From Candidatus Nanohaloarchaea archaeon (GTDB taxonomy: Archaea; Nanohalarchaeota; Nanosalinia; Nanosalinales; Nanosalinaceae), in NCBI GenBank assembly GCA_046497485.1, contig JAWOFP010000030.1, positions 1-19,003 on the forward strand: 19,003 bases of DNA, written 5' to 3'. Position numbers and translations under genes: made by a program. The notes under the pieces were generated by a model, which did no database searches, was not told the origin of the DNA, and saw nothing but the letters and a program-made list of their open reading frames with translations. Positions 1 through 16,459 of this stretch are shown here, piece after piece (within the stretch, counting starts at the first letter, position 1; each line of letters begins with the position of its first letter).

Positions 1-485
1 AAGAATTGAAGGAAAAATACGATGAATTCTATATCGTGATAGGAAGTTCTGAGGAATCACGTACCGATAATAATCCCTTGACCTTTGAGGAACGGAAGAA
101 CCTGATTCACGCGTGCCACCCAGAACTAGAGATTTTAGGCCTAGAGGATACCGAAAAGACGTCGGAAGGAAATATTGAATGGGCGGAAAAACTTGAGAAA
201 CTAGGCCTAGATAGAATCATTTCAGGCAATGATCTAGTCATCGAAATAATTGATGAACACACAGATATAGAGCATGAGTGGCCAGAGATGCATGATGAAG
301 AGATTTACTCGGGCACCGAAGTGCGGAGAAGAATTAACTCTGGAGAGGAATGGCGGTATCTCGTGCCTAAATGCAGTTACGAAGAAATAGAAGATCTTAT
401 CGAGAAAATCAAAGCCTCAGGCACCCAATATAATTTTGAACCCGGTTGGAAGCAGGAGAACGCTTTCCACGGTACTTCTGGGTAA
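1..485 (+). CDS. nadM: Nicotinamide-nucleotide adenylyltransferase (archaeal NMNAT), 5'-partial
   Basis: Motifs IVIGSSEESRTDNNPLTFEER, YSGTEVRRRI and WRYLVP match archaeal NMNAT. The frame is open to the window edge and the N-terminal HxGH motif is missing, so the start lies upstream. Confidence 0.85.
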   Translation, partial: ELKEKYDEFYIVIGSSEESRTDNNPLTFEERKNLIHACHPELEILGLEDTEKTSEGNIEWAEKLEKLGLDRIISGNDLVIEIIDEHTDIEHEWPEMHDEEIYSGTEVRRRINSGEEWRYLVPKCSYEEIEDLIEKIKASGTQYNFEPGWKQENAFHGTSG

Positions 486-612
486 TAATCCTGATAGCCT
501 TGATCAAACTCATCCAACGAATTCAACAACTACAAAGTCTCGTTGCACGGCACCATCAGTTCGTCAAACACGCTTAAATCCTCAAACACTGTTTTTCCGC
601 CTCTTCAATCGG

Positions 613-677
613 TTGATTTTCAGATTTGCGCACACCCAGCTTTCAGGGAATTCTTGTCAAAGGATCTCCGCATACAG
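613..677 (-). repeat. Conserved non-coding 3' block, copy 1 (paralogous to 2765-2843)
   Basis: 613-632 vs 2765-2784 match 19/20; 651-677 vs 2817-2843 match 24/27. Confidence 0.85.
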
Positions 678-681
678 AGCC

Positions 682-728
682 GAAACTCTCCGAGTTTCTG
701 GATCCTCCAGAAAATCCTCTGGATTTTC
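682..728 (-). promoter_or_regulatory. Two tandem triloop hairpins downstream of the putative VR (candidate DGR target-recognition hairpins; could also be a terminator)
   Basis: Minus strand GAAAATCC-AGA-GGATTTTC (728-710) and GAAACTC-GGA-GAGTTTC (698-682), starting about 15 nt after the stop codon. Confidence 0.7.
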
Positions 729-742
729 GGAAGAATCACCTC

Positions 743-2701
743 TCAGGAGACAGGAACAGCAGAACAGCGGAACCCGTAGATCGCGTCCGAGAGGCCCGGG
801 GCGTACGAGTACGCGTAGAACACGCCCGCGCTATCGCCATTGCGCCAGTAGCCGCTGCGGAGAGCGGCATCACCATCATCAAGACCGTTATCATTTCCAA
901 GACCGTCTCCACCTTCTACCTCGCTGCTCTCAGGGTTTTTCTCATAGATTTTATCACCACTACTATCAGGACTATTCATCGTTGAACCATCTTCTTCAGC
1001 ATCAACCCACATCCATAAATCGCCCGACATATCCCATACATTATCGCCCGAAGCTAGCTCATGAGTTCTCTCAGTCTCACCGACAGCATCCGCATCATTA
1101 GGATGCTGGCCAATATCAACAGCACGATCATAATCATCGCCTTCATTATGATTACCCTGGAAAAGCCCGCCAGAATCACCTGTACTGCCGATATCGCCGT
1201 CAGCCCAGTTAGAAGAGTCCTGAGCCACTTGCCTCGCGACCGTCATCCACTCACGATTCGTCATCAAATGAACATCATAATCATCACTAGCCTCACTATC
1301 TAGCGCTTGACAAGCATCATAAGCATTTGGCGAACCACCCTCATCGTTAAACGGAATATAGTTCCAGCCCCTTTCATCACTCACCGACTGAGGCACATCG
1401 CTGCCGTTATTAGAGGCCTGATACTTCATCACAAAGAAACCTTGATCAGTGTATTCTACACTGGTGTCGCCGAGGTACTCGTTGTCGCCGGAAGACTCGT
1501 TAAAGAAGTAATCATAACCTCCTTCAGTGCTCGCTGGCTCAACACGGCTCCACTCACCACCAACAGAAGGACTCGACACTGTAGCCTCCTCAACATCAAT
1601 CGTTTCCGAAGCAGTATCGGTCTCACCGTTCACATCCTCAACAGTCAACTCCACATCATAACTGCCTGAACTGTCGAAACTATGCTCAACTACCTGTCCA
1701 TTTTCAGTGCCGCCATCATCAAAATCCCAATCATAACTCTCAATGCTGCCATCTCCCTCACTACTACCAGAACCATCAAACTCAACAACCTCATCCTCCT
1801 CCGGACTCGAATCATTAACCGATATATCAGCTGTAGGGCCTTCCAGTTCCTCGACTGTCACAGTACCGGATTCACTGCTGTCATCAGTAGAAACAGTGTA
1901 ATCGATATCACTTCCTGCATCTCCATCCTCGGTACTCCAACTCAATGAGCCAGTCGAATCTTCACCGCCATCTATAGATTCTTCTACCGAATCCTCTTCA
2001 ACACCATCAACACTCAACACTACATCCTGAGTATCAGATTCCTCACCAGTATTACTCAAATTGTAATCAACATCAAAACTTTCTCCCTCAGTCACAGGGC
2101 TATTATCGTTATCGATAGCGACATCAAAGTCGGCAGGATCAGAACCCTCATCTTCATCTCCACCATCGCCAGTGCTGGAACCGCTCTCAGTAATCTCGAA
2201 ATTCCCGCTGATCGATCCAGAAGTCGATAAACCGGTGAGGCCTCCAGAATCATAATTCACATTGACATCGAGATTGTTAGCCCCATCTCCTTCAGTAACA
2301 TTAGCCAAAGTAACACTACTAGTTCCACTTACAGGAATCTCCTGATCTCCAGCCCACTCAGTCCAATCACCGGATTCATCAGAAATATTCACGCTGTTAA
2401 TCTCCACGCTTTCAGAAGCAGTGTTACGCATCACTAAATCCAACTCATCATCACTGTTCAAACCAAAGTCATCAACCACAACATCTCCACCCGTAAAACC
2501 ACTAACTGATTCCACAGATTGACTCTGAACAACACTGAACATCGTGCCTCCTACAATTGCTACTACGAGAAGCATCCAACCATAAGTCATCAAATATTCT
2601 ATAGCTGATTGACCCTTTTCAAGGCCTAAATCAATGCTATCTGTGTGTGTGTGGAGAAATTCATTGTTATTAGAGAGTAAAGACTTTCCAAGCTCATACA
2701 T
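743..2701 (-). CDS. Class III signal (pilin-like) surface protein: N-terminal pilin-like domain, CARDB-like Ig domain, PKD domain, C-terminal CLec/FGE-sulfatase-fold domain; putative DGR target
   Basis: KG|QSAIEYLMTYGWMLLVVAIVGG signal (E at +5). PKD motif FDGSGS..SYDWDFDDG..HSFDSSGSYDVELTVED. CLec motifs FFVMKYQAS, LMTNREW, VWDMSGDLWMW, LRSGYW and terminal GFRC. Confidence 0.85.
   Translation of the reverse strand: MYELGKSLLSNNNEFLHTHTDSIDLGLEKGQSAIEYLMTYGWMLLVVAIVGGTMFSVVQSQSVESVSGFTGGDVVVDDFGLNSDDELDLVMRNTASESVEINSVNISDESGDWTEWAGDQEIPVSGTSSVTLANVTEGDGANNLDVNVNYDSGGLTGLSTSGSISGNFEITESGSSTGDGGDEDEGSDPADFDVAIDNDNSPVTEGESFDVDYNLSNTGEESDTQDVVLSVDGVEEDSVEESIDGGEDSTGSLSWSTEDGDAGSDIDYTVSTDDSSESGTVTVEELEGPTADISVNDSSPEEDEVVEFDGSGSSEGDGSIESYDWDFDDGGTENGQVVEHSFDSSGSYDVELTVEDVNGETDTASETIDVEEATVSSPSVGGEWSRVEPASTEGGYDYFFNESSGDNEYLGDTSVEYTDQGFFVMKYQASNNGSDVPQSVSDERGWNYIPFNDEGGSPNAYDACQALDSEASDDYDVHLMTNREWMTVARQVAQDSSNWADGDIGSTGDSGGLFQGNHNEGDDYDRAVDIGQHPNDADAVGETERTHELASGDNVWDMSGDLWMWVDAEEDGSTMNSPDSSGDKIYEKNPESSEVEGGDGLGNDNGLDDGDAALRSGYWRNGDSAGVFYAYSYAPGLSDAIYGFRCSAVPVS
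746..868 (-). other. Putative DGR variable region (VR)
   Basis: None of the last 41 codons ends in A, and every A lies in position 1 or 2 of an NNC/NNT codon. These alternate with A-free codons (GCG, TCG, CCG, GTG, TTC, GGG). The region is GC-rich relative to the rest of the gene and lies between the RxGxW and GFRC motifs. Confidence 0.75.
2642..2653. repeat. (TG)6/(CA)6 microsatellite in the leader of adhesin 1 (encodes HTHT)
   Basis: tgtgtgtgtgtg read directly. Confidence 0.9.
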
Positions 2702-2710
2702 AACCTTAAT

Positions 2711-2732
2711 TTAGCTCTAGGCCTTAAATAAA
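2711..2732 (-). promoter_or_regulatory. TATA-box promoter of adhesin 1 (probably leaderless)
   Basis: Minus strand TTTATTTAAGGCCTAGAGCTAA, with the TATA element 23-31 nt upstream of ATG 2701; nearly identical upstream of adhesin 2. Confidence 0.65.
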
Positions 2733-2764
2733 GTTAAGATTCTCAACATCAAAATGAAGAATTT

Positions 2765-2843
2765 TTGATTTTCAGATCTGCGCAGACTCAGCAACCCACG
2801 GCCAGGATTCAGCCAATTTTTGTCAAAGTATCTCAGCATACAG
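2765..2843 (-). repeat. Conserved non-coding 3' block, copy 2
   Basis: Paralogous to 613-677. Confidence 0.85.
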
Positions 2844-2848
2844 CTTTA

Positions 2849-2884
2849 CACCTCTCAGGAAACAGGAACAGCAGAACACCGGAA
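2849..2884 (-). pseudogene. Orphaned 3' end of a CLec/VR gene (FRCSAVPVS-stop)
   Basis: 34/36 identical to 737-772; both differences are synonymous (CGC/CGG, GTC/GTT). Confidence 0.8.
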
Positions 2885-3035
2885 ACTCTCCTCCCCAGCA
2901 CCAAGAAGGCGGGCCGTCTGAGACTGTCCCCGAATAACCAACATTTTCCGTACCTTCACCACCGACAGTGATCACGGCATCAGTTATCGCCATGACCTCA
3001 GTCCAGTCAAGAACAATAACAACCGCGCCATCGAG

Positions 3036-4409
3036 TCAGTCAATCGCGTGAACTTCATATTCGTCCCAGCCCGAACCCGAAAAGACGGTGCCCGTAGACT
3101 CATCCACCGCGACGCCCTCCACAAAGCCCGTGTGCTCGGAGTAGGTCCACTCTTGGCTGCCATCGCTCACATCAATCGCGTGAACTTCCTTATCGTCTGA
3201 CGCCGAAAAGACGGTGCCCGTAGACTCATCCACCGCGACGCCATTCACCTGGGCCGTGTGCTCGGAGTAGGTCCACTCTTGGCTGCCATCGCTCACATCA
3301 ATCGCGTGAACTTCATTTTCGTCCCAGTCCGAACCCGAAAAGACGGTGCCCGTAGACTCATCCACCGCGACGCCGTACAAGGTGGAGTTGTGCTCGGAGT
3401 AGGTCCACTCTTGGCTGCCATCGCCCACATCAATCGCGTGAACTTCATTGTCACCCGACGCCGAAAAGACGGTGCCCGTAGACTCATCCACCGCGACGCC
3501 ATTCACGAAGTCCGTGTGCTCGGAGTAGGTCCACTCTTGCTCTCCCTCCCCAAGACCACTTTCAACCTCTAAACTACCGGAAACACTCTCATCCCCACTA
3601 ACCTCAACATCAACACTATAACTATCAGCAGATAAACCAGAAATCGGATCAGCAAAAGTAACAATCTCCGAATCACCACTACCCAAATCAGACGTAGATT
3701 CAGTATCACTTACTGTCTCACCATTCTCAATACTTAAATCAACGTCAAAACTACTGCTCTCATCACCAACATTCTCCACAGTTACATCGACATCTCCACT
3801 TTCGCCATCATCAACAGTCGCATCACTTCCTTGACCCGCAATATCCAAATCGGAGAGGTCGGCGGTCGCCGCCACGAATGTACTATCCTCAATTACCTCA
3901 AAATTCCCGGAAATACTGCCCTCAACCTGCAAATTTTCAAGGCCGCCGCTACTGTAAATTATCTCCACATCCAAACTATTAGCACCGTCGCCTTCACCCA
4001 CCTCCTGCAAAGTAACCGATCCAGTATCCCCAACACCAATATCTTCCTCATCAATCCATTCCGCAGTATTTGAATCATCACTTACACGCACCTCCTCAAC
4101 CGTAACACTGTTACTATCAGCATTACGCAAAACCAGTTGAAGCTCATCACCACTGGTGATGCCAAAATCATCTACTTGAACATCAGCACCGGTAAAACCA
4201 CTCACACTCTCAACCGACTCACTCTGAGCAATAGAAAAGATAGAACCACCAACAATAGCCACCACAAGAAGCATCCAACCATACGTCATCAAATACTCAA
4301 TAGCAGACTGGCCCTTAAAACCGCTAAAACCAGTTAATTCTTCGCTATCCGTGTGTGTGTGGAGAGATTCATTTTTATTGAAGAGTAAAGATTGTTTAAG
4401 CCCATACAT
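3036..4409 (-). CDS. Class III signal (pilin-like) surface protein with CARDB-like Ig domain and four C-terminal WD40/PQQ-like beta-propeller repeats
   Basis: Same KG|QSAIEYLMTYGWMLLVVAIVGG signal, and the N-terminal ~170 aa are clearly paralogous to 743-2701. Start placed at 4409 (MYG...) by alignment with the paralog and equal TATA spacing; the ORF track gives 4415. Confidence 0.85.
   Translation of the reverse strand: MYGLKQSLLFNKNESLHTHTDSEELTGFSGFKGQSAIEYLMTYGWMLLVVAIVGGSIFSIAQSESVESVSGFTGADVQVDDFGITSGDELQLVLRNADSNSVTVEEVRVSDDSNTAEWIDEEDIGVGDTGSVTLQEVGEGDGANSLDVEIIYSSGGLENLQVEGSISGNFEVIEDSTFVAATADLSDLDIAGQGSDATVDDGESGDVDVTVENVGDESSSFDVDLSIENGETVSDTESTSDLGSGDSEIVTFADPISGLSADSYSVDVEVSGDESVSGSLEVESGLGEGEQEWTYSEHTDFVNGVAVDESTGTVFSASGDNEVHAIDVGDGSQEWTYSEHNSTLYGVAVDESTGTVFSGSDWDENEVHAIDVSDGSQEWTYSEHTAQVNGVAVDESTGTVFSASDDKEVHAIDVSDGSQEWTYSEHTGFVEGVAVDESTGTVFSGSGWDEYEVHAID
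3039..3539 (-). repeat. Four intragenic tandem repeats (126, 132, 126 and 117 bp), beta-propeller blades
   Basis: Units start at 3539, 3413, 3281 and 3155 on the minus strand. Blocks QEWTYSEH, GVAVDESTGTVFS and EVHAI are identical at nucleotide level. Confidence 0.95.
4351..4361. repeat. (GT)5G microsatellite in the leader of adhesin 2 (encodes HTHT)
   Basis: gtgtgtgtgtg read directly. Confidence 0.9.
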
Positions 4410-4418
4410 AATCATAGG

Positions 4419-4440
4419 TTAGCTCCAGGCCTTAAATAAA
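4419..4440 (-). promoter_or_regulatory. TATA-box promoter of adhesin 2
   Basis: Minus strand TTTATTTAAGGCCTGGAGCTAA, with the TATA element 23-31 nt upstream of ATG 4409. Confidence 0.65.
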
Positions 4441-4538
4441 CTTTTTATTCTCAGCAGCTTTAGAATAACTGATATAACCTCGTTATATACTAGAATTTCT
4501 TTTTTATTCGAGGCCTGCCAATTGCTCCATGTGATAAA

Positions 4539-5564
4539 ATGGTAAACGTAATTGTAGCTGGAGTCGGGACGATCGGTAAAAGAGTGGCTGAGGCCGTTAA
4601 AAAGCAGGAAGATATGAACCTCTACGGAGTGGCGGATGTCAGCCAGACCGGAGGCCTGAGAACTGTATTGCATGAGAACGGTCCTCTGCACGGCACTGAT
4701 CTATATGCTTCCAATGAGGAAGGACTTGAAAACCTTGAGGATCAAGGATTCTATGTAGCAGGCCTCTTAGAAGATCAGCTGGATGAAGTCGATCTAGTGG
4801 TCGATTGTACTCCGCCAGGAGTCGATAAGAAGAACAAGGAGAACCTTTACGAGCCTCATGATGTGAAAGCTGTTTTCCAAGGAGGCGCGCCTGACGATAT
4901 TGCAGAGGTCAAGTTCAACGCTGACGCGAACTATGAGGAAGCACGAGGAGAAGACTTTGTTAAAGTTGTAAGCTGTAACACTACTTCTCTTTCAAGGACG
5001 ATGAATGCAGTTGATGAGGCCTTTGGAGTTGATAATGCTGTTGCTAGCCTGGTAAGACGTGGAGGAGATATTCCACAAGACGGTAGAGGGCCTATCAACT
5101 CTACAGTTCCTGTAACGGAAGTTCCTTCACACCACGGACCTGATGTCCAGGCGGTTATGCCAGAACTTGACATCAAGACTTTAGCAGTGAAAGTGCCTGT
5201 AACTTTTGGACATGTCCACATGAACAATGTAGAACTTGAGTCTCAGCCGTCTGAGGAAGAAGTTAAAGAGGCCTTCAGAAATCAGCCGCGAGTCAATTTG
5301 GTCAGTGCAGGAGAAGGTTATGATTCCACAGGCAAAATCCACGAGCAGATGAGAGATCTGGAGAGGCCTAGAAGCGATATGCCTGAAGCAGCAATCTGGG
5401 AGGAGACTATCAAAGTCGAAGACAACACACTCTATTGGATCCATATGGTGCACCAAGAATCAATTGTTGTGCCTGACAATGTCGATGCGATCCGCTCAAT
5501 GTTCGAGATGGAAGAAAAAGAGGAATCTATCAGAAAGACCGATGAAGCAATGAACCTCAGATAA
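4539..5564 (+). CDS. gap: Archaeal type II glyceraldehyde-3-phosphate dehydrogenase
   Basis: GVGTIGKRVAEAV, VVDCTP, FQGG, catalytic VVSCNTT, SHHGPDV, HQESIVVPDNVDAIR. Confidence 0.95.
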   Translation: MVNVIVAGVGTIGKRVAEAVKKQEDMNLYGVADVSQTGGLRTVLHENGPLHGTDLYASNEEGLENLEDQGFYVAGLLEDQLDEVDLVVDCTPPGVDKKNKENLYEPHDVKAVFQGGAPDDIAEVKFNADANYEEARGEDFVKVVSCNTTSLSRTMNAVDEAFGVDNAVASLVRRGGDIPQDGRGPINSTVPVTEVPSHHGPDVQAVMPELDIKTLAVKVPVTFGHVHMNNVELESQPSEEEVKEAFRNQPRVNLVSAGEGYDSTGKIHEQMRDLERPRSDMPEAAIWEETIKVEDNTLYWIHMVHQESIVVPDNVDAIRSMFEMEEKEESIRKTDEAMNLR

Positions 5565-5591
5565 ATAACTACTTTCCTTATTTCCTTTCTT

Positions 5592-6617
5592 ATGAAAATC
5601 CTGATAATAGGCTGGGGATACCCTCCAAAAATCGATGGAGGCCTAGATATAGCAGTAAAAGAGCTGTTTGAAGGCCTTCAAAAGAAAGATATTAATGTAG
5701 ATTTGATGCTTCCATCCGAAAGAGCCCCTGAAAAAGAAAATATTATTCCTATAGATGTTGAAGGCGACATGTTTTCTAAAGCAGAACAATTGAGCAGAGC
5801 AGCCGCAAAAAAGGCTTCAAAATATGATATCATCCATACTCATGACTGGTTCGGCGCTGAAGCAGGTTTCAAGGCCTCAAAATACTCCGATATAAAATGG
5901 ATTTCCACTTTTCACTCCTTGAGCTCTTCCAGAAATAGAACCCCTAGTGACGAACTTGAGAAGCTTGAAAAAATTGCTGTAGAGAACGCAGACAAAGTCA
6001 CAGCAGTCAGCGACAAACTGGCTGATGAGATTGAGGAAAAATACGGTTTAAGACCTGAAACAGTTTACAACGGGTTTTCAAATGTAGATACTCAAGAAAA
6101 AGTCGATTTCGACACGGAAATACCAGTCTTCTTCTATGTAGGAAGACATGCTGAGCAGAAAGGCCTTGAACACCTGATTTATGGATTCGACAAATATCTT
6201 GAGGAGAACGAAGGCCTACTGGTTTTAGGTGGCGATGGCCATCTCAAAGATTCACTTGAAGATTTTGTAGAAATACTTGATATAGAGGAAAGTGTTCGTT
6301 TTGAAGGCTTTATACCCGATAGAGAGCTTGGCAGTTATTACAGTACAGCCGATGTTTTTGTTTCCCCTTCAATCAATGAACCTTTTGGCTTAACTATCAG
6401 CGAGGCCTTGAACGCTGGTACTCCCGTATTGTGCACGGAGAGCGGTATAAATGAGCTTTTACCGAGCGAAGCAGTTACTATTGTTGAGCCTAACTCTGAT
6501 TCAATTGCTGAAGGCCTGGAAAAAAGTTTGAAGAAGGATTCTGTTGAAGTAGAAGGTAGAAGCTGGGATGAGATGGTTAATGATTATATCAAGAGTTATA
6601 GAGAACTAATCAAGTAA
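5592..6617 (+). CDS. Glycosyltransferase family 4
   Basis: GWGYPPKIDGGL, IIHTHDW, YVGRHAEQKG, PSINEPFGLTISEA. Confidence 0.92.
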   Translation: MKILIIGWGYPPKIDGGLDIAVKELFEGLQKKDINVDLMLPSERAPEKENIIPIDVEGDMFSKAEQLSRAAAKKASKYDIIHTHDWFGAEAGFKASKYSDIKWISTFHSLSSSRNRTPSDELEKLEKIAVENADKVTAVSDKLADEIEEKYGLRPETVYNGFSNVDTQEKVDFDTEIPVFFYVGRHAEQKGLEHLIYGFDKYLEENEGLLVLGGDGHLKDSLEDFVEILDIEESVRFEGFIPDRELGSYYSTADVFVSPSINEPFGLTISEALNAGTPVLCTESGINELLPSEAVTIVEPNSDSIAEGLEKSLKKDSVEVEGRSWDEMVNDYIKSYRELIK

Positions 6618-6621
6618 ATTT

Positions 6622-6855
6622 CTAGTTAAGCAATTTTACTTGATCTGGATTACCAGGATAAAAGCCTATAAGGCCTTTTTCCGTTTCTGCAAGGCCTGTA
6701 GAATCTTCGTAGTAATATGTTGTTTCTGTTTGCTTGTTCTTAATAGGTAGAAGGATTCGCTCTTCCTCATCTTCTCTGATGACTACTGCGGCTTTTTCAT
6801 CTCCAAAAATTTCTATTTTGGTGCCATTTTCGGTTTCTGTTGTCCTGAGCCGCAT
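6622..6855 (-). CDS. Small acidic hypothetical protein
   Basis: Fills the gap between the GT4 and GH57 genes and has host-like composition. ATG 6855 (MRLRTT...) lies 25 nt from a TTTAAA box. Confidence 0.7.
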   Translation of the reverse strand: MRLRTTETENGTKIEIFGDEKAAVVIREDEEERILLPIKNKQTETTYYYEDSTGLAETEKGLIGFYPGNPDQVKLLN

Positions 6856-6879
6856 ACAAATTAATTGAATCCCATCCAA

Positions 6880-6885
6880 TTTAAA
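6880..6885. promoter_or_regulatory. Candidate shared bidirectional TATA box
   Basis: Palindromic TTTAAA, 25 nt from ATG 6855 (-) and 23 nt from ATG 6908 (+). Confidence 0.45.
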
Positions 6886-6907
6886 CAAGCGGTCCCGACA
6901 TCAATAC

Positions 6908-8128
6908 ATGACTCAGAAAATCACACTCAGCTTTGAGGTTCACCAGCCTCACAGACTGAGAACAGAGGGAGTGAAAGAAGACGCAGACACTCTATACGAC
7001 AGATATTTTGACGATGAAATGAATGAGCACTTCTTCAGAGATGTGGCAGAAAACTGTTACTTCCCTGCAACTGAAAGACTGCTTAGAGAGGCAAAAAAGA
7101 GATCTGGCACTGATAGGCCTCTAGTAGTCAATTTTTCAATTTCTACTTCATGGATTCAACAAGCAAAAAAATACCATCCCGAACTCATCGATCTAATCAA
7201 CAGATTCCCAGATGACTCAATTGATTTCATAGGACAGGCCTATCTTCACAGCCTAGCAGGCCTTTTCGATGACAAAGAAGAATTCCGATGGCAGCTAAAT
7301 CATCACAGAGAAGTTATCGAGGAAACTTTCGGAGTCAAGCCTAAAGTAATGACTAACACTGAATTGATCTATCATAACGAGATTGGGAAGATAGCGTCTG
7401 AGGAAGGCTATGAAGGGATTTTCACTGAAGGTGTTGATAGAATTCTTGGATGGAGGTCGCCTAACGATACCTATACTCAGCCGGAGTTTGTAACTGAAGA
7501 TGGCAACTCAATAATGCTGCGTAATAGGAAACTAACGGATGATGTCGGTTATAGGTTTTCAGCTGAATGGTGGGATGAGTATCCATTAACTGCAGAAAAA
7601 TATGCGTCTTGGCTTTCAGAGACTGCCGGACATTCAGTGAACCTTTTCATGGATTATGAGACCTTTGGAGAACACCACTGGGAAGGCACTGGAATCCTTT
7701 GGTTCTTGGAATCTCTACCTGAAGAAATACTGAAATACGATAATTTAGAATTCGCAAAAGTTAGAGAGGTCGCAGAAGAAAACGAGCCTGTTGGAGAATT
7801 TGACGCCTTTGAGTACAACACTGTTTCCTGGGCAGATCAGGAGATGGACGCGAGCGCCTGGCTCGGAAACCCTATGCAGAAAACATTATTTGAAAAACTC
7901 CAGAACCTTGAAGACAAAGTCAAGGCCTTAGACGATGAAGAATACTTGGAAGTCTGGCGGAAATTCTTGACTTCAGATCATCTACATCATATCGCAACGA
8001 AGACTATGGATGATGGCTCGGTTCACAACTATTTCTCATACTTCGATCATCCGCATGAAGGATTCGCAGTCATAACAGATCACTTGATGGATTTCCAAGA
8101 GCAGGTCGAGAAAGAGCTCAGGAGCTGA
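6908..8128 (+). CDS. Glycoside hydrolase family 57 (alpha-amylase type)
   Basis: FEVHQP, HSLA, NTELIY (nucleophile Glu), LTDDVGYRFS, FMDYETFGEH (acid/base Asp), SWAD, TSDH. Confidence 0.92.
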   Translation: MTQKITLSFEVHQPHRLRTEGVKEDADTLYDRYFDDEMNEHFFRDVAENCYFPATERLLREAKKRSGTDRPLVVNFSISTSWIQQAKKYHPELIDLINRFPDDSIDFIGQAYLHSLAGLFDDKEEFRWQLNHHREVIEETFGVKPKVMTNTELIYHNEIGKIASEEGYEGIFTEGVDRILGWRSPNDTYTQPEFVTEDGNSIMLRNRKLTDDVGYRFSAEWWDEYPLTAEKYASWLSETAGHSVNLFMDYETFGEHHWEGTGILWFLESLPEEILKYDNLEFAKVREVAEENEPVGEFDAFEYNTVSWADQEMDASAWLGNPMQKTLFEKLQNLEDKVKALDDEEYLEVWRKFLTSDHLHHIATKTMDDGSVHNYFSYFDHPHEGFAVITDHLMDFQEQVEKELRS

Positions 8129-8134
8129 TTAAAA

Positions 8135-8842
8135 GTGGAAAAACATTTTATTGAAATAAAAGATAGAGAAAAAGTCGCAGCTGTGCATCACGAGGCCTCT
8201 TCTGATAAATGGTTATTTCTCTGTCACGGTTTCGGCGGGAATAAAGATAGAGGTAATAAGGGAAGGGCTGAGGCCTTCAATGAAATCGGTTGGAATACTG
8301 TAAGGCTTGATTTCCGAGGTAATGGAGAGTCAGACGGAGAATTTATCGATCAAAACTTAAGTACAAGAATTGAAGACCTTAAAGCCGTCATAGATCATTT
8401 TAATCCAGGAAAATGCATTTTATTTGGTACAAGCTTTGGAGGCAAAGTCGTATTCCATACAGCCGCTGAGAAAAAAGTAGATGGAGTAATTGGAAAGGCC
8501 CCGGTAACTTACAACAGAATCATGGATAAATTCAAGTCTGTTATTGAGGAAAAAGGGCGATTTGAGTATATAGATGGAAAACCTATCGATGAAAGATTTA
8601 TAGAAGATTTAGAGACTTATAGTTTTTCAACTGTAGAAAATCAGCTAGACATCCCGGTTTTCATAACTCATGGCGCCGCTGACCAGACGGTACACATTGA
8701 AAACTCTGTAGAGGCCTTGAAGAATCTTGATGTCGATGTAGAGTTTCAGAAGCTGGAAGGAGTAAAACATTCCTACAGTGAGGAAGGAAAGAAAAAGATG
8801 AATTCTGCTGTGAAGGCCTGGCTCAAAAACCTCATGAATTAG
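8135..8842 (+). CDS. Alpha/beta hydrolase (esterase/peptidase-like)
   Basis: CHGFGG, DFRGNGESDG, nucleophile GTSFGG, HGAADQTV and distal His; GTG start. Confidence 0.88.
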   Translation: MEKHFIEIKDREKVAAVHHEASSDKWLFLCHGFGGNKDRGNKGRAEAFNEIGWNTVRLDFRGNGESDGEFIDQNLSTRIEDLKAVIDHFNPGKCILFGTSFGGKVVFHTAAEKKVDGVIGKAPVTYNRIMDKFKSVIEEKGRFEYIDGKPIDERFIEDLETYSFSTVENQLDIPVFITHGAADQTVHIENSVEALKNLDVDVEFQKLEGVKHSYSEEGKKKMNSAVKAWLKNLMN

Positions 8843-8851
8843 AGGTAAGAT

Positions 8852-9331
8852 TTATTCATTGATGTCGAATGCTAGATAGGCTGCCGAGAGACCTGTAATC
8901 ACTGATGGAAAACTCAAAAATGCGGCCTGATTTTCTAGTACTACAAATGACTGGAAAACTCTGGCCGGGTCGCCGATACCTCCAGGACTAAGTGATTCCC
9001 CAATTAAGATCAGCATTGTTCCTATTGCAGTTATGTTTAAGGCGAAAAATCCTAAAAATGATGCAAATGTTGAGAAAGCGATAGTCTGGCCTTTATCAGG
9101 TTCATAATATCCTATATACAGGCCTGTTAGTCCGGAAATTATTGGAGATATGAAAAATGATGATATAGCCACCATTACAATCATTGCTGTGGCTTCAAGT
9201 TCTACTGTGGAGCCAAAACTTCCTATTGCATCAATGTAACTCAGGCCTAGAAATGTTGAAACCCCTATTGCCGTACCTGTTGCAAGAAATACTGCTAGAG
9301 ATTTGGTTAGATCTTCGTAGATCGGGTGCAT
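8852..9331 (-). CDS. Hypothetical membrane protein (about 4 TM helices)
   Basis: Four hydrophobic stretches. ATG at 9331 preferred over the upstream GTG at 9358. Confidence 0.75.
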   Translation of the reverse strand: MHPIYEDLTKSLAVFLATGTAIGVSTFLGLSYIDAIGSFGSTVELEATAMIVMVAISSFFISPIISGLTGLYIGYYEPDKGQTIAFSTFASFLGFFALNITAIGTMLILIGESLSPGGIGDPARVFQSFVVLENQAAFLSFPSVITGLSAAYLAFDINE

Positions 9332-9366
9332 TCTTACATTAAAATTAGAAATCTTCACTTTTATCT

Positions 9367-10509
9367 TTAATTTAAGGCCTCAGTGTAGACTCCTGTTGTC
9401 CAGGCCGTGATTTGCTCCCATCTAAAGTTGTCTTCTACGCGGTCCCTGGCATTATCTCCCAGCCAGTCACTCCATCCCGGATCATTTAGAGCTCTTGAAA
9501 CTTGGTGAGTAATCGAACCAGAGTCTTCTGGATAAGTATGGAGGCCTGTGTATTCGTGAACTATTGTATCTTTCATTCCCCCAGTGTAGCTTCCGACTGT
9601 CGCGGTTTCACATGCCGCTGCTTCCAGTGGAACGATGCCGAAAGGCTCATAGACTGATGGCGCAACCGTTATCTCGGCCTCCTTCATTAGACTGACCAGT
9701 TCATTGTCTGAGACATAGCCCGGGAAGTGAACTTTGTCACCTACCTGATTCTTAGCCAACCCTCTATAATGTTCGGTCGCACCAGAACCACACATTACAA
9801 ACTTCGCGTCAGGCCTCTGATCTAGTATATGAGGCATAGCCTCAATCAAATGACCGGGACCTTTCTGAGGATACATTCGACCCACAAAAAGCACGATATT
9901 TTCCCAGTCTAAAGCATAATTATCTCTTTGAAGATTTTTGGAGTGAGAATCAAATTTTTCAAGATCTACACCGTTTGGAATATAGTTTATTTTTTCGTCA
10001 GGCACATTATACGCATGCTTGACCTCTTCGCAGAAATCTCTTCCAACAGTTATGACTTCTGAGGCCTCATAAGTACCATACCACTCCAAGTTATGTATTG
10101 CCTGTTGGTAATCAGAGTTTATTCCGTCACGGCCTTTCTGAGTTGAATGTACAGTAAATACCATTGGTAAATCTAAGGTCTTTTTCAGGCCTGTTGCTGC
10201 AGGCACGGCCATCCAGTCATGTCCATGAATTAAGTCAAAGTTTTTCTCTCTAGCGAGATGTATTCCTTTTTTCTCCATTCTATCTGCTAAACTCATTGCC
10301 CAAGAAATTGTGTTGTCTGCTGCGTCGTTTGCTGGAACTCTGTGAATTTCTACGCCGTCTCTGTATTCTTTTTCCTCTTTCTCTCCATAAGTGATTACTA
10401 CAGGTTCATGGCCTTGATCTGCCATCGTTGTGGCTAGATCTTCACAGTGCGCCGCTATCCCTCCCGCTTTGTAAGGAGGATACTCCCAAGTTATGAATAG
10501 CGGTCTCAA
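9367..10509 (-). CDS. Glycosyltransferase family 4 (alpha-glucan synthesis-associated)
   Basis: TWEYPPYKAGGI, IHGHDW, TVHST, IPNGVD, FVGRMYPQKG, PSVYEPFGIVPLEA. Confidence 0.93.
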   Translation of the reverse strand: MRPLFITWEYPPYKAGGIAAHCEDLATTMADQGHEPVVITYGEKEEKEYRDGVEIHRVPANDAADNTISWAMSLADRMEKKGIHLAREKNFDLIHGHDWMAVPAATGLKKTLDLPMVFTVHSTQKGRDGINSDYQQAIHNLEWYGTYEASEVITVGRDFCEEVKHAYNVPDEKINYIPNGVDLEKFDSHSKNLQRDNYALDWENIVLFVGRMYPQKGPGHLIEAMPHILDQRPDAKFVMCGSGATEHYRGLAKNQVGDKVHFPGYVSDNELVSLMKEAEITVAPSVYEPFGIVPLEAAACETATVGSYTGGMKDTIVHEYTGLHTYPEDSGSITHQVSRALNDPGWSDWLGDNARDRVEDNFRWEQITAWTTGVYTEALN

Positions 10510-11111
10510 TTTGCTTTAACCTCTTTAGTCTGTAATAAATCTCTGTAGATTTTTAAAATCGATTCACTCCAGTCATTAGATAAAGGATCTTTAAGATAAG
10601 TTTTTTCCTCTGGAACTTCTAAATCAAATTTAACTGAATTTAAAGTATCTTCTGAGTTTACAATTATTTTATCTGCAGATTTACACCCTTTCCATTCCAT
10701 TTCAGATATCATAGGCGAGTTAGGATCTGAAAAACCCCTCTCATTTTCAGTTGAATGAACCGTAAGCACCATAGGCCTGTCTAGGTATTCTTTCATTGCT
10801 GTAGCCCCTGGGACTGTCGTCCAATCATTTGCATGTATAATATCAAACTCCTGATCTTTAAGGAGTTCTCTTGCCTTTTCTTTCATCTCATTATTCAGCA
10901 TCATCGACCAACTGTACAGCGAATCACCCTCATAGTGAAGATTAGTTCTGATAACCTCTACTCTTTCATCAACACTGTAATGAGAACCATCATCAAACGC
11001 AATCACCGCAGCCTCATGACCTTTTTCTACCAAGGCCTCTGCTAGAGACTTCACATATTCTGAGATATCATCGCCGTCTTCAAATTTTCTGGTCAGAAAA
11101 ACTACTTTCAT
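10506..11111 (-). CDS. GT4 N-terminal-domain-only protein
   Basis: DIIHANDW, LTVHSTE and EWKG match the neighbouring GT4 N-domain; no VGR or EPFG motifs. Start and stop overlap the adjacent genes. Confidence 0.8.
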   Translation of the reverse strand: MKVVFLTRKFEDGDDISEYVKSLAEALVEKGHEAAVIAFDDGSHYSVDERVEVIRTNLHYEGDSLYSWSMMLNNEMKEKARELLKDQEFDIIHANDWTTVPGATAMKEYLDRPMVLTVHSTENERGFSDPNSPMISEMEWKGCKSADKIIVNSEDTLNSVKFDLEVPEEKTYLKDPLSNDWSESILKIYRDLLQTKEVKAN

Positions 11112-12247
11112 TATTTGAACCTCTGCTCAAACCCGAGCTCTTTGCTTTTCTCAACATCCGGCTGATTGAAAGGATTTACATCTCTTATCCATCCAGAATA
11201 AACCGACAAGAACTGTAGTAGGGCCATAAACTCTCCGATTGAACCATAACTTACTTCCTCAATTTTAAGCTCTATGAAAGGCCTGTTTTCATCTCTTAAT
11301 GCTTTTTTGACTCCTGAGGCCTCGGCATTCAATGAATTTTCAAGTTTCTGACCATCTAAATCGCCGAGCTTTCTTCCTCTAAGATCCAGTTCTCTAAGTT
11401 CTTCATCTACTTCAAGCGTCTGATGTTCGTGGCTCGACTCTATAAATATTGGAATTACATTTTCTCGGCCGCCAAACATTCTTTGATTCGTGTGATGCTG
11501 ATACTCTGGGCCTAGGTCACCGTAAAATGTCTGTCCTTCTCCTCTTTTGCAGACTGATTCATGCATTAACTGCACGAGTAATGGATAGAAACCGAAAAGC
11601 CTTGTGGAGTAGAAAGGAGTTAAGACTTCATTAAAACCTCTTCCTTCGGCTTGATAGAGTGCTTCTGCAAGAACTTGGGCATCACTACCGCTTTCCCAAA
11701 ATCTTTCATGCGCTTTCCTACCTTGATTAAAAATCTCTTCAACATCTAGGCCTAGAAGTGATGCAGGAGCCAAAGCAGTTTCGGAAAGACCTGTAAATCT
11801 CCCGCCGATATCCGGATGTTCAATTATTTCTATATCTTTCTTCTCTGAAATTTCATGGAGCAATCCGCCCCTAGAAGTCAGAGGCCTGATATCATATCCT
11901 CTATTGAGAAAGAAAAGCGTAGACTCAATAACGCCCGTAGTATTTCCTGACTTGCTAATTGGCATAACTAAAGTATCTTCCTTATCCAAGCTTCTCTCCA
12001 CATGTTTCAGATAGCCTGGTTCCATCGTTGTTATTATCTCTACATTTTTGGAATGTTCGTCTCTAAAAGCATAATTTAAAGCCCTGAAGCTTGTTACAGA
12101 GCCTCCATTGCCTATAACTACCAAGTTTTCGAAATCCTCCTCTAAATCCTGAAGCATTGAGATAGAGGTTTCATGCATCGCAAAGTATGGTTTAGGCCTG
12201 TTAAACTCTGCATTTCCAGTTTCAAGTCCGTTAATATTTATTTTCAT
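11111..12247 (-). CDS. pgi: Glucose-6-phosphate isomerase (PGI/SIS family, compact)
   Basis: IGNGGS, ISKSGNT, IGGRFTGLS, QLMHESVCK, NPFNQPDVEKSK. Confidence 0.85.
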   Translation of the reverse strand: MKININGLETGNAEFNRPKPYFAMHETSISMLQDLEEDFENLVVIGNGGSVTSFRALNYAFRDEHSKNVEIITTMEPGYLKHVERSLDKEDTLVMPISKSGNTTGVIESTLFFLNRGYDIRPLTSRGGLLHEISEKKDIEIIEHPDIGGRFTGLSETALAPASLLGLDVEEIFNQGRKAHERFWESGSDAQVLAEALYQAEGRGFNEVLTPFYSTRLFGFYPLLVQLMHESVCKRGEGQTFYGDLGPEYQHHTNQRMFGGRENVIPIFIESSHEHQTLEVDEELRELDLRGRKLGDLDGQKLENSLNAEASGVKKALRDENRPFIELKIEEVSYGSIGEFMALLQFLSVYSGWIRDVNPFNQPDVEKSKELGFEQRFK

Positions 12248-13980: not shown

Positions 13981-14075
13981 AACTGAAACTTGGTTCTGTA
14001 TCAGTATAAAAACTCTTGATACCACTCGAAGGTTAAAATACATGTTTTATACCGAGAACAGACCCATTCACTTCT
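13981..14075. promoter_or_regulatory. Divergent promoter region (glycogen synthase operon / debranching enzyme operon)
   Basis: TTTTATA on the minus strand at 14011-14005 and on the plus strand at 14045-14051, each about 25-31 nt upstream of its ATG. Confidence 0.6.
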
Positions 14076-15833: not shown

Positions 15834-16459
15834 TAATCGTAAACTTCAAGGCCTACAAGGAAGCAACAGGAAAAGATGCAGAAAAACTTTCAAAGCAATG
15901 TAGAAAAGCTTCCAAAGAATCAGGTGAAAAAGTAGTTTCTGTGCCTCAACATACAGATGTCGGCAGAATGAAAGGAAAGTTTTATGGACAGCACCTAGAT
16001 CCAGTAGAGCCCGGTAGTCATACAGGACATACTACTGCTGAGGCGTTGAAAGCATCAGGAGCTTCCGGTACACTGATAAATCACTCAGAGCGAAGAATAG
16101 ATCCTGAAAAGATAGAGAGAAGCATCGAGAGAGCAAAAGAGAAAGGCCTAACTACAGTTGTTTGTGCTCAGTCTCCTGAAGAATGTGAAAAATTCTCCAA
16201 GTTTGAACCGGACTTTGTGGCTTTTGAGCCGCCAGAGCTTATTGGAGGCAATATCTCGGTTTCAAGTGCTAAACCTGATTTAATCAAAAAAGCAGTTGAG
16301 AAGTCAGAAGTCGATGTCCTAACCGGCGCAGGCATAAAAAGCCGTGAAGATGTGGAAAAAAGCATAGAATTAGGTTGCAAAGGAGTTTTAGTGGCATCCG
16401 CAGTAGTAAAAGCTGAAAACACTTATGAAGAAATCATGGAGCTCTGTAAAGGCCTATGA
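15830..16459 (+). CDS. tpiA: Triosephosphate isomerase (archaeal type)
   Basis: IVNFKAY, GSHTG, LINHSERR, AFEPPELIG, GAGI, GVLVAS. Confidence 0.96.
   Translation: MIIVNFKAYKEATGKDAEKLSKQCRKASKESGEKVVSVPQHTDVGRMKGKFYGQHLDPVEPGSHTGHTTAEALKASGASGTLINHSERRIDPEKIERSIERAKEKGLTTVVCAQSPEECEKFSKFEPDFVAFEPPELIGGNISVSSAKPDLIKKAVEKSEVDVLTGAGIKSREDVEKSIELGCKGVLVASAVVKAENTYEEIMELCKGL

Follow-up and report, generated by a model that had tools for sequence, protein, structure and literature searches.

We analysed a window of 19,003 nt, contig C44 of a nanohaloarchaeal genome (G000; 967,558 nt, rated 97% complete). Between positions 613 and 4456 its minus strand carries two tandem paralogues, genes A and B, with unrelated C-termini (Table 1). 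Both genes have a TATA box, a long leader containing a (CA)5-6 tract, a class III (prepilin) signal with cleavage between KG and QSAIEYLMTYGWMLLVVAIVGG, a pilin-like N-domain, a CARDB-like domain, and a 3' tail followed by a non-coding block.

Promoter and leader are 80% identical over 122 nt (2627-2748 in A, 4335-4456 in B), and the proteins share 56% identity across 235 aa (E = 7e-69), a span that covers the leader, the class III signal and the N-domain. At the other end, the 3' tails are 94% identical (737-772 and 2849-2884) and the non-coding blocks align in two segments (613-640 with 2765-2792, 89%; 631-677 with 2797-2843, 81%), the gene B copy missing about 54 nt. Every element of the two-unit anatomy claimed in a preliminary description was found, on the minus strand, as were the unrelated C-terminal modules: PKD and FGE/C-type-lectin domains with a variable repeat (VR) in gene A, propeller repeats in gene B.

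Table 1. Features of the locus and of the associated retroelement (positions in the window unless contig C56 is given)
Feature	Position	Strand	Details
Convergent cytidylyltransferase-like ORF	3..485	+	3' end abuts acc1 relic
acc1 relic (first DGR accessory gene)	470..589	-	40 codons, internal stop (three-frame translation)
Non-coding block 3' of gene A	613..742	-	repeat families D7, D12; alignment with gene B copy, L035, L032
Three overlapping stem-loops	682..728	-	7-8 bp, directly after gene A stop; hairpin scan and folding
Gene A, 652 aa	743..2701	-	leader, class III signal, pilin-like N-domain, CARDB-like, PKD, FGE/C-type-lectin with VR
FGE-sulfatase/C-type-lectin-fold domain, gene A	746..1561	-	profile of homologous target C-termini
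VR, gene A	764..869	-	last ~35 codons, before ...GFRCSAVPVS*
PKD domain, gene A	1598..1840	-	aa 288-368; PF18911 (PKD_4), E 8.7e-21
Mature pilin-like part, gene A	2168..2611	-	hydrophobic N-terminal helix aa 31-59, beta-sandwich aa 65-177
(CA)6 tract, gene A leader	2642..2653	-	12 nt, read as HTHT
Overlapping starts ATGTATG, gene A	2695..2701	-	ATG1 2699-2701 in frame; ATG2 2695-2697 other frame
TATA-like box TTTATTTA, gene A	2725..2732	-	regex and reading of sequence; 79 nt 5' of CA tract
Non-coding block, gene B copy	2765..2848	-	L035 type, without stem-loops; alignment
Lectin-domain 3'-end relic behind gene B	2849..3035	-	tail ...FRCSAVPVS* at 2849-2884; three-frame translation
Gene B, 459 aa	3036..4415	-	leader, signal, N-domain as A; CARDB-like; four blades; stop within fifth repeat
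Propeller-repeat segment, gene B	3039..3560	-	repeats D1; GC profile
(CA)5C tract, gene B leader	4351..4361	-	11 nt
Start codons, gene B	4405..4415	-	in frame 4413-4415, 4407-4409; other frame 4403-4405
TATA-like box, gene B	4433..4440	-	sequence reading and regex
TR	C56:12-121		alongside RT
Reverse transcriptase (RT), 334 aa	C56:361-1365		intact ORF; RVT_1, E 6.1e-24

As had been claimed from the class III signals, the gene products resemble pilins. The mature N-terminal part of gene A was modelled with AlphaFold2 (pLDDT 82.1) as a helix followed by a beta-sandwich, and the top VIA-align match of this model was an archaeal type IV pilus, that of Pyrobaculum (8fk7_A; Z 10.0, rmsd 2.6, 91 residues); the second match had Z 8.4. 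Genes for a pilus ATPase (T2SSE) and platform (T2SSF) are present in the genome, and one T2SSF pair on contig C62 sits directly upstream of a member of the class III N-domain family. This family gave 15 tblastn matches on 11 contigs, in ORFs of 141-686 aa whose C-termini are Glug, DUF2341 or unassigned. No prepilin peptidase was detected in the genome with PF01478 or PF06819. The products of genes A and B may be incorporated into a pilus and may bind the host.

A Pfam search with gene A alone gave no match for the lectin domain. Its homologues match Pfam FGE-sulfatase, and a profile built from eight homologous target C-termini matches 5vf4_A (E 2.2e-12) and sulfatase-modifying factor 2 (1y4j_A, E 0.0022). 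The stalk varies among target orthologues, which have zero to two PKD domains.

The remote retroelement (DGR) that had been postulated is real: its template (TR) and reverse transcriptase (RT) lie on contig C56. The gene A VR aligns with C56:12-117 over 106 nt without gaps, and 15 of the 18 mismatches fall at adenines of the TR, which has 26 of them (binomial p = 2.6e-7). The relatives gave similar counts (15/17 in G024, 17/18 in G057, 10/12 in L038 and 19/20 in L035). In relatives the cassette is contiguous, in the order target-acc1-bAvd-TR-RT, and the non-coding block behind gene A corresponds to the target-acc1 spacer of such intact cassettes. In sequencing run X1, three contigs cover the gene A VR with 18-28 differences; four of the six listed variant positions within the VR are at TR adenines, and two restore the TR base. 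Judged by these alignments, gene A is a true DGR target: cDNA made from the C56 TR by the adjacent RT, with errors at adenines, would overwrite the last ~106 nt of its lectin tip.

Gene B has a different history. Its propeller consists of four tandem ~126-nt repeats of PQQ/WD40 type (PQQ_2, E 3.6e-11) with a GC content of 52-65%, against about 37-42% just upstream within the gene. The nearest relative of the propeller, P0005, is 74% identical, has eight blades and lacks a class III signal; the closest propeller relatives have neither conserved flank, no pilin N-domain and no 3' tail, and some bear signals that, judged by eye, are of twin-arginine type. Behind gene B, a decayed, frame-shifted VR-like stretch precedes the relic lectin tail, and positions 2803-2884 are 91% identical to L035. 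Metagenome genes with a B-type leader (L031, L037/L038) end in a lectin VR. On the evidence of these remains, gene B is a former DGR target in which four GC-rich blades from an eight-blade propeller have taken the place of the lectin tip. It would have arisen by tandem duplication of the target gene plus its downstream spacer, and would afterwards have lost the tip to a four-of-eight-blade fragment of a secreted propeller protein, so that it is no longer diversified. The replacement looks like a single past event, and the gene, which ends inside a repeat with four blades, may be non-functional. The claim that the DGR diversifies the lectin tips of this locus thus holds for gene A but not for gene B, with its decayed VR and replaced tip.

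What is left of acc1 was recognized by tblastn with the 153-aa acc1 of L035 (77.5% over 40 aa, C44:589-470), and neither a further acc1 nor any bAvd homologue was found in the 97%-complete genome. Since TR and RT also lie on another contig than the targets and three of the 18 TR/VR mismatches are not at adenines, present-day activity of this DGR is only putative. Together with the stop within a repeat after four of eight blades and the frame-shifted VR relic, these features would fit a locus decaying as a whole, in which the DGR is dead, gene B, its propeller truncated, has become a pseudogene, and gene A, once a target, is now frozen. We regard this as possible but doubtful, because the ORFs of genes A and B are intact, with ATG1 in frame, as is that of the RT, and because run X1 holds several VR variants with changes at TR-adenine positions. 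Moreover, C56 begins 11 nt before TR, precisely where the bAvd gene of L035 ends, and synteny with G004 and L035 puts C56 beside the left end of the window; the accessory genes may therefore simply be unassembled.

The CA tracts of genes A and B are the two longest of three dinucleotide runs of at least 10 nt in the genome, compared to 9-14 such runs in five mononucleotide shuffles of it. The genome yielded no MutS domain. The tract is retained in lineages whose N-domains are just ~40% identical, and it encodes HTHT in G000 and THTH in G024; being read in different frames across genera, it is conserved at the DNA level. Fourteen distinct copies range from 11 to 17 nt and are the sole length-variable element of otherwise constant leaders, the distances from ATG to tract (48 nt) and from tract to cleavage site being constant within a lineage. 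Lengths are 11, 13 and 15 nt in B-type leaders, 12 and 14 nt in A-type leaders with an identical 48-nt pre-tract, and 17 and 13 nt in one further pair. A 2472-nt comparison of L033 with L041 gave 98.6% identity and a single indel, of 2 nt, at the edge of the tract. Near-identical assemblies from different samples of the same strain agreed in tract length in three of three pairs; the length differences are therefore not assembly noise, and any switching is not extremely fast.

Thirteen of 17 gene copies carry an ATG at -48, and among 11 distinct copies its frame is 0 in three, 1 in three and 2 in five. Six of the 14 distinct copies have no in-frame ATG, GTG or TTG before the cleavage site although their ORFs are intact (254-749 codons), and no copy at all has one between tract and cleavage site. 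Values of dN/dS were 0.09-0.23 for four pairs, each of which includes a copy without an in-frame start (OFF), and 0.42 for the fifth pair computed, gene A and L035. In gene A the tract lies 48 nt from ATG1 and 44 nt from ATG2, and the TATA-like box is ~24-31 nt upstream of ATG1, which suggests a leaderless mRNA if the box functions as predicted.

The frame-toggling length polymorphism in near-identical leaders of other assemblies, along with purifying selection on the ORFs, supports the earlier proposal of a microsatellite switch: the CA tract probably switches both genes on and off. Lying exactly 48 nt past the TATA-proximal ATG, inside the part of the leader removed on maturation, the tract would gain or lose CA units by slippage within a clone, and each 2-nt step would shift the pilin frame relative to the overlapping ATGTATG starts. 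A gene would thereby cycle from in frame with ATG1, through out of frame, to in frame with ATG2, from which translation could also begin, and tract length would set expression on or off. In L031 and G057 each of the three frames has a start codon, which could buffer expression instead of switching it.

It could be speculated that the tract is neutral or has another role, as a 5' UTR element or through the HTHT peptide, that its lengths reflect ordinary strain divergence and that translation starts elsewhere. Consensus length is, after all, steady between samples of one strain, classical contingency repeats tend to be longer than these 5.5-8.5 units, and at the gene A tract the contigs of run X1 (pre-assembled, with rare variants dropped and the gene B tract uncovered) are free of indels. 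In addition, a published orthologue, the DGR target LC1Nh_0123 of Ca. Nanohalobium constans LC1Nh, has an annotated GTG start and non-zero proteome values in the supplementary data sd02 and sd03 (La Cono et al. 2020, PMC7443923), so that a non-ATG start can serve, at least there. The absence of a switch is nevertheless unlikely given the six copies that lack any in-frame start. The tract-length steps are 2 or 4 nt and never 6, which means that the peptide motif is not what is conserved, and different genera read the tract in different frames. Further, the tract holds the only indel across the 2.47 kb of the L033/L041 pair, and it is kept at ~40% N-domain identity in a genome otherwise depleted of such repeats.

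On the whole, we think it rather probable that genes A and B are paralogues coding for surface proteins in which an archaeal type IV pilin chassis bears a stalk and, at the C-terminus, a binding tip, one being a DGR target and the other a former target, both under a CA switch. The pattern is consistent with simple-repeat phase variation layered over DGR hypervariation.

Neisseria pilE/pilS is a case of cassette-based antigenic variation of a pilin, and the locus resembles it in that a pilus protein varies between conserved flanks; no silent donor cassettes were found in G000, however, and diversity here comes from a retroelement and one domain replacement. The flanks had been proposed as recombination handles that swap tip cassettes at an expression site, which would suit the foreign tip of gene B, flanked by a conserved part on its 5' side and a conserved tail and block on its 3' side, the modular N-domain family and the differing stalks, but this is very improbable: the full leader, 3' block, lectin domain and propeller are each confined to this locus in G000, the nearest propeller relatives lack the pilin N-domain and 3' tail, nine of the 14 distinct CA-leader genes end in a lectin VR (two more are contig-cut but homologous to lectin-bearing genes, and three are other), the 3' flank consists of the former target end and the ordinary target-acc1 spacer, and alternative joints in run X1 contigs are explained by a single-gene L035-type relative or by paralogue cross-alignment. 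No evidence of programmed tip-cassette exchange was found.

Paul and co-workers (in 2015 and 2017) and Handa and co-workers (in 2016) reportedly described DGRs that have C-type-lectin targets in DPANN archaea. The locus shares with these the adenine-specific TR-to-VR mutagenesis of a C-terminal lectin fold in small symbiotic archaea and differs in the type IV pilin chassis of the target and the frame-shifting dinucleotide repeat in its leader; our literature searches found neither feature described.

The combination had been thought undescribed, and this stands only in part. A nanohaloarchaeal DGR with bAvd, RT and an FGE/C-type-lectin-fold variable protein is published for Ca. Nanohalobium constans, where the target is annotated as a 'hypothetical protein' (PMC7443923). 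Its published sequence, as in G000, has a CA tract immediately before the class III signal, and the main text contains neither 'pilin' nor 'phase varia' and uses 'class III' solely in another context. In contrast to that species, G000 has a tandem pair of target-type genes, of which one has had its tip replaced, and a split or broken cassette; the DGR further extends here to G024, G057 and several metagenome contigs. The CA tract provides the strongest new result. A 2025 review places archaeal phase-variable loci under future work (PMC11868660), and our literature search found no description of simple-repeat phase variation in Archaea.

Bacteria offer parallels to the proposed switch. In Neisseria, phase variation involves CTCTT repeats (opa) or poly-G (pilC) in the signal-peptide region, and Haemophilus lic1 has (CAAT)n behind several ATGs in different frames. 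As in these genes, a non-triplet repeat occupies the part of a surface or adhesin gene that encodes the cleaved leader, leaving the mature protein unchanged, with upstream starts in more than one frame. Unlike them, the present case is archaeal, a dinucleotide of 5.5-8.5 units on a probably leaderless mRNA. The modular type IV pilins PilB and PilC of Streptococcus sanguinis, onto which C-terminal modules are grafted, likewise join a pilin N-terminus to an adhesive or lectin module; unlike genes A and B they are bacterial, with no retroelement diversification and no repeat switch.

The gene B copy of the block lacks the stem-loops that lie behind gene A, and none was found behind the targets of G024, G057, L038, L031 and L032. 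L035 has two of the three, with different letters in the stems, and their role is putative.

Two tandem paralogues, gene A and gene B, lie in the window on contig C44 of the source genome (967,558 nt, 66 contigs, completeness rating 97%). Their promoter and leader regions are 80% identical over 122 nt and their N-termini 56% identical over 235 aa (E 7e-69). A 3' tail of 36 nt is 94% identical between the two units, as is, to 81-89%, a non-coding block behind each gene, of which the gene B copy lacks about 54 nt. Both proteins begin with a leader of 30-34 aa that includes HTHT from a CA run, followed by KG/QSAIEYLMTYGWMLLVVAIVGG (the slash marks the cleavage site) and a domain of ~120 aa. Beyond a CARDB-like domain, gene A encodes a PKD domain (E 8.7e-21) and a domain ending ...GFRCSAVPVS, whereas gene B encodes four tandem propeller repeats of ~126 nt (PQQ_2, E 3.6e-11), with the stop codon within a fifth repeat. 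The preliminary description, of two units with common promoter, leader, signal, N-domain, 3' tail and block but unlike C-termini, was accurate. Feature coordinates are collected in the table.

Features of the locus and of related loci (window positions unless another contig or locus is named)
Feature	Location	Strand	Length	Remarks
Gene A	743-2701	minus	652 aa	DGR target
Gene B	3036-4415	minus	459 aa	Propeller paralogue of gene A
Promoter and leader, gene A; gene B	2627-2748; 4335-4456		122 nt	Aligned with each other
VR of gene A	764-869		~106 nt	Last part of gene A
TR (template repeat)	C56:12-117			Aligned with VR
RT	C56:361-1365		334 aa	RVT_1, E 6.1e-24
acc1 relic	589-470		40 codons
Stem-loops after gene A stop	682-728			Arms GAAAATCC/GGATTTTC; TTTCTGGA/TCCAGAAA; GAAACTC/GAGTTTC
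acc1-type genes	L035:5963-6421; L020:10252-10647; L029:9644-10021
Further N-domain family genes	G000:C64:46-2106 (L006); G000:C47:887-2278 (L012)			Source genome (G000)
Tandem propeller paralogues	G014:C1:381857-385762 (L054)		~430 aa each
Tandem pilin-type genes	L064:3263-5454 (G004:C15)		362 + 368 aa
CA-tract genes with non-lectin C-terminus	L030:1348-2109; L040:2419-3183		254-255 aa
Glycogen and glycolysis cluster	4539-18686			GAPDH, GT4 glycosyltransferases, GH57, alpha/beta hydrolase, glycogen synthase, debranching enzyme, TIM, ADP-dependent kinase, phosphoglucomutase

Class III signals consist of a short charged leader, a [KR]G/Q cleavage motif and about 20 hydrophobic residues. Such a signal is present in both genes and its motif residues are at least 90% invariant in an alignment of 21 sequences, while the leader is unusually long compared to the 2-12 aa of 12 paralogues. 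An AlphaFold2 model of residues 1-185, built from the same 21-sequence alignment (pLDDT 82.1), predicts a helix (33-59) and a beta-sandwich (65-177). The top structural match among 48,161 chains was the type IV pilus of Pyrobaculum calidifontis (8fk7_A; Z 10.0, rmsd 2.6, 91 residues); the next row had a Z of 8.4, and FlaF and an archaellin scored about 7.2-7.3. Foldseek alone gave a weak match (E 2.1e-3), and at E ≤0.1 neither protein matched a Pfam family for pilins or class III signals. The pilus ATPase T2SSE is encoded on contigs C15 and C14 and the platform protein T2SSF on C14 and C62, where the T2SSF pair is directly upstream of an N-domain family member. A prepilin peptidase was not detected in this genome (completeness rating 97%), although a divergent enzyme could have gone unnoticed: PF01478 had no match, and PF06819 had one at E 0.097 only, with stops inside. 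The gene A and gene B proteins probably have a type IV pilin-like chassis and may be incorporated into a pilus.

The VR at the 3' end of gene A aligns without gaps to the TR on contig C56, and 15 of the 18 mismatches fall at TR adenines (p 2.6e-7). The TR is rich in AAC codons. Mismatches are concentrated at TR adenines also in the related genomes G024 (15/17) and G057 (17/18) and at metagenome loci L038 (10/12) and L035 (19/20). The RT is intact, lies ~240 nt downstream of the TR and shares 60% identity with its counterpart in the complete G024 cassette; its translation contains the motifs ...IGALYSQ... and YMDD, hallmarks of DGR RTs. Gene A alone had no lectin match in Pfam and its C-terminal domain was assigned via a profile of gene A and seven homologues, which matches 5vf4_A (E 2.2e-12) as well as an FGE paralogue. 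Several target homologues match Pfam FGE-sulfatase (PF03781). Because of the adenine pattern, the RT and the FGE/C-type-lectin profile matches, gene A is a standard lectin-fold DGR target.

In relatives the cassette is contiguous, in the order target, acc1, bAvd, TR and RT (G024, G057, L035/L042 and L037/L038; partial in L033 and L041), and both accessory genes were found in G024, G057, L035 and L038. The bAvd-like protein of relatives matches PF22296 (E up to 4.9e-30). The first gene of this tandem accessory pair, acc1, is clade-specific (125-153 aa), has a weak 23S-IVP/Avd-like match (E 1.3e-4) and may be a diverged second Avd; the second is a clear bAvd. An RT was detected in one of 40 other relatives searched and was not found in the four genus-mates searched.

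Past the block downstream of gene A, only the first 40 codons of acc1 are left (77.5% identity). They are interrupted by one stop and joined directly to a convergent cytidylyltransferase-like ORF at its 3' end, and tblastn found no bAvd homologue and no second acc1 in the source genome. Since C56 begins 11 nt before the TR, the point where bAvd ends in L035, both accessory genes are possibly just unassembled; C56:1-345 is 92% identical to L035. The gene order in the genus-mate G004 is FBPase, DeoC, two pilin-type genes, AhpC, ORF, cytidylyltransferase, ORF and GAPDH. On C56 the order is FBPase, DeoC, AhpC, ORF and cytidylyltransferase, then RT and TR, while the left end of the window has a second cytidylyltransferase copy (72% nt identity) followed by gene A, gene B and GAPDH. 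From this comparison, C56 and the window are probably neighbours across an unassembled gap, which may contain acc1, bAvd and perhaps a further target. The cytidylyltransferase copies on C44 and C56 are 64% against 58% identical to the G004 gene, and neither was assigned as its orthologue. In a public run of pre-assembled contigs (X1), three contigs selected at ≥85% likeness, which may stem from relatives, span the VR with 18-28 differences. Of the six in-VR variant positions listed, four sit at TR adenines and two revert to the TR base. These variants are suggestive of DGR activity.

Three overlapping stem-loops with common arms directly follow the gene A stop codon, and two of the three also occur in L035 with altered stems. 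They are a possible terminator, DGR recognition element or regulator. A general role of post-VR hairpins in DGR recognition was rejected, as they lie downstream of the gene A and L035 targets only and are absent in G024, G057, L038, L031 and L032.

Gene B has the marks of a former target. Its stop codon is followed by a decayed, frame-shifted VR-like stretch and then by the tail (...FRCSAVPVS, stop) and the block. Metagenome genes with a B-type leader, in which 37 nt separate tract and cleavage site, have a lectin VR at their end (L031, L037/L038). At the syntenic locus L035 a single target adjoins GAPDH. This target and gene B align over their 5' halves, and the blocks of the two share 91% identity. 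The GC content of the propeller segment (~3039-3560) is 52-65%, compared to about 37-42% immediately upstream within gene B. The nearest relatives of this segment are multi-blade proteins of 590-797 aa (47-74% identical; eight blades in P0005) without the pilin part. Among the 69 other genomes of the order, 8 have relatives of the propeller, and no other propeller copy was found in the source genome. Those of the related genome G014 carry apparent twin-arginine signals, as judged by eye. Most simply, target and spacer would have been duplicated in tandem, and one copy would later have had its lectin tip replaced; gene B would then be a clean natural case of a DGR target retired via tip replacement. 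A viral origin of the propeller was rejected, with 0 relatives of P0005 in viral_contigs. As a separate observation, L054 in G014 comprises at least three tandem paralogues that are relatives of the gene B tip, each an eight-blade propeller protein with an RRxFLK-type signal.

It had also been proposed that tips are exchanged between the conserved flanks. What we found points to one historical replacement and not to a system: no flank-bearing donors were seen, and a search of the source genome for further copies showed that the leader, the 3' block, the lectin domain and the propeller are each confined to this locus. Silent donor cassettes with expression-site flanks were likewise not found in this genome. 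Contigs of run X1 show four joints at the locus. The likeliest source of joints 588>2763 and 588>2787 is a single-target relative of the L035 type, and joints 4316>2570 and 2828>670 are paralogue cross-alignments.

The N-domain family of the source genome is itself modular, with 15 tblastn hits spread over 11 contigs. Another twelve family ORFs (141-686 aa) have short leaders of 2-12 aa and end in Glug, DUF2341 or unassigned C-termini. The genes on C64 and C47 have GLUG repeats (E 3e-29) or a DUF2341 domain (E 3.2e-12), and most C-terminal extensions in the family had no Pfam match. In G004, the two tandem class III pilin-type genes of L064, between DeoC and AhpC, have other C-terminal domains, short leaders and no CA tract.

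The (CA)n tract (2642-2653 in gene A, 4351-4361 in gene B) lies 48 nt past the first start codon (ATG1), ahead of the cleavage site, and the length of its unit is not divisible by three. Of the source genome's 14 family ORFs, genes A and B alone have the long leader and the tract. Dinucleotide runs of ≥10 nt number three in this genome, compared to 9-14 in five shuffles, and the tracts of genes A and B are the two longest. The genome, depleted of simple repeats, also has only three homopolymers of ≥9 nt, and no MutS domain (domain V match) was found in it. The CA-leader pattern was seen in three of the order's 70 genomes, the source genome among them. The tract also occurs in the DGR targets of G024 and G057, which share about 40% N-domain identity with gene A. 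It reads THTH in G024 as opposed to HTHT in the source genome, and the tract is therefore conserved at the DNA level.

A pattern scan of metagenome contigs, in which runs of ≥9 nt count and shorter tracts are undetectable, added 13 loci, giving 17 copies of which 14 are distinct. The distances on either side of the tract, from the ATG (48 nt) and to the cleavage site, are constant in a given leader lineage and the tract alone varies: its length is 11, 11, 13 and 15 nt in B-type leaders, 12, 14 and 14 nt in A-type leaders with an identical 48-nt pre-tract, and 17 vs 13 nt in one further pair. A pair 98.6% identical over 2472 nt has a single indel, of 2 nt, which lies at the edge of the tract. 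Tract lengths agreed in three pairs of near-identical assemblies, which speaks against assembly noise and likewise against switching at an extreme rate. At L030 and L040 the CA-tract leader (17 vs 13 nt) belongs to a protein whose C-terminus contains Cys and is not a lectin, and the putative CA switch therefore occurs outside DGR targets as well.

An ATG at position -48 is found in 13 of the 17 copies, usually as ATGTATG, which provides a second ATG in another frame, and a TATA-like box lies ~30 nt upstream. Relative to the pilin ORF, ATG(-48) is in frame 0 in three, frame 1 in three and frame 2 in five of 11 distinct copies; both genes in the window are in frame with ATG1 at present. Six of 14 distinct copies have no in-frame ATG, GTG or TTG ahead of the cleavage site, and the L031 and G057 copies have start codons in all three frames. 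The ORFs behind the tract are nonetheless intact in all 17 copies (254-749 codons), and dN/dS is 0.09-0.23 in the four pairs that contain out-of-frame copies and 0.42 in the fifth pair computed (gene A vs L035). L035, a copy without an in-frame start, still shows the adenine pattern (19/20).

The tract has the signatures of a contingency repeat, placed in a cleaved leader, and from these we infer switching and an effect on expression. The (CA)n run would be read against two overlapping start codons, with the states ATG1-on, off and ATG2-on, and slippage in the cleaved leader would leave the mature protein unchanged. Programmed frameshifting or transcriptional slippage at the CA repeats was judged less likely than DNA slippage, the length differences being fixed in assemblies. 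The earlier idea, raised as a possibility only, that the microsatellite turns copies on or off gains support from frame-changing length polymorphism and intact, selected ORFs. The run X1 contigs showed no indel at the gene A tract and did not cover the gene B tract (window bin 4348-4488). Caveats to the switch are the L031 and G057 copies with starts in every frame and a published orthologue that has a GTG start and is listed in a proteome table. We regard it as an even call that two layers of variation, a DGR-rewritten lectin tip and a three-state (CA)n slippage switch, act on one pilus adhesin.

Ca. Nanohalobium constans is reported to have a DGR whose variable protein is of the lectin/FGE fold (PMC7443923). 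The target is listed there as a 'hypothetical protein', an annotation that our locus refines; this orthologue, given a GTG start in the annotation, is among the entries of the proteome table (PMC7443923 sd02, sd03), and the terms 'pilin' and 'phase varia' are absent from the main text, the SI appendix apart. Cellular DGR targets mostly have an N-terminal membrane segment or signal peptide, and pili are not mentioned in the available portion of that survey (Roux et al. 2021, PMC8144416). A 2025 review names archaeal phase-variable loci as future work (PMC11868660). Our literature searches found no description of a repeat-switched DGR target (DGR with Nanohaloarchaea, pili, DPANN or phase variation) or of repeat-based phase variation in an archaeon (archaea, phase variation and repeats). 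The DGR part is a further case of a published kind, and the microsatellite carries the best new evidence.

Nanohaloarchaea live attached to haloarchaeal hosts. For host recognition the locus offers a concrete candidate, a predicted pilus-borne lectin adhesin with a hypermutated tip, and suggests stochastic expression switching by a mechanism so far documented in bacteria only. If true, simple-repeat phase variation would be described for Archaea for the first time, a phase-variable DGR target would likewise have no known precedent, and a symbiont apparently without MutS could hedge its attachment against, for example, escape from pilus-binding viruses. Cultured nanohaloarchaeon-host pairs with the same gene exist, which makes tract length, expression and host binding directly testable.

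Beyond gene B, the remainder of the window is largely taken up by the glycogen and glycolysis cluster. In G024 the entire DGR cassette lies within the syntenic cluster at another position, between the hydrolase and a 150/168-aa ORF.
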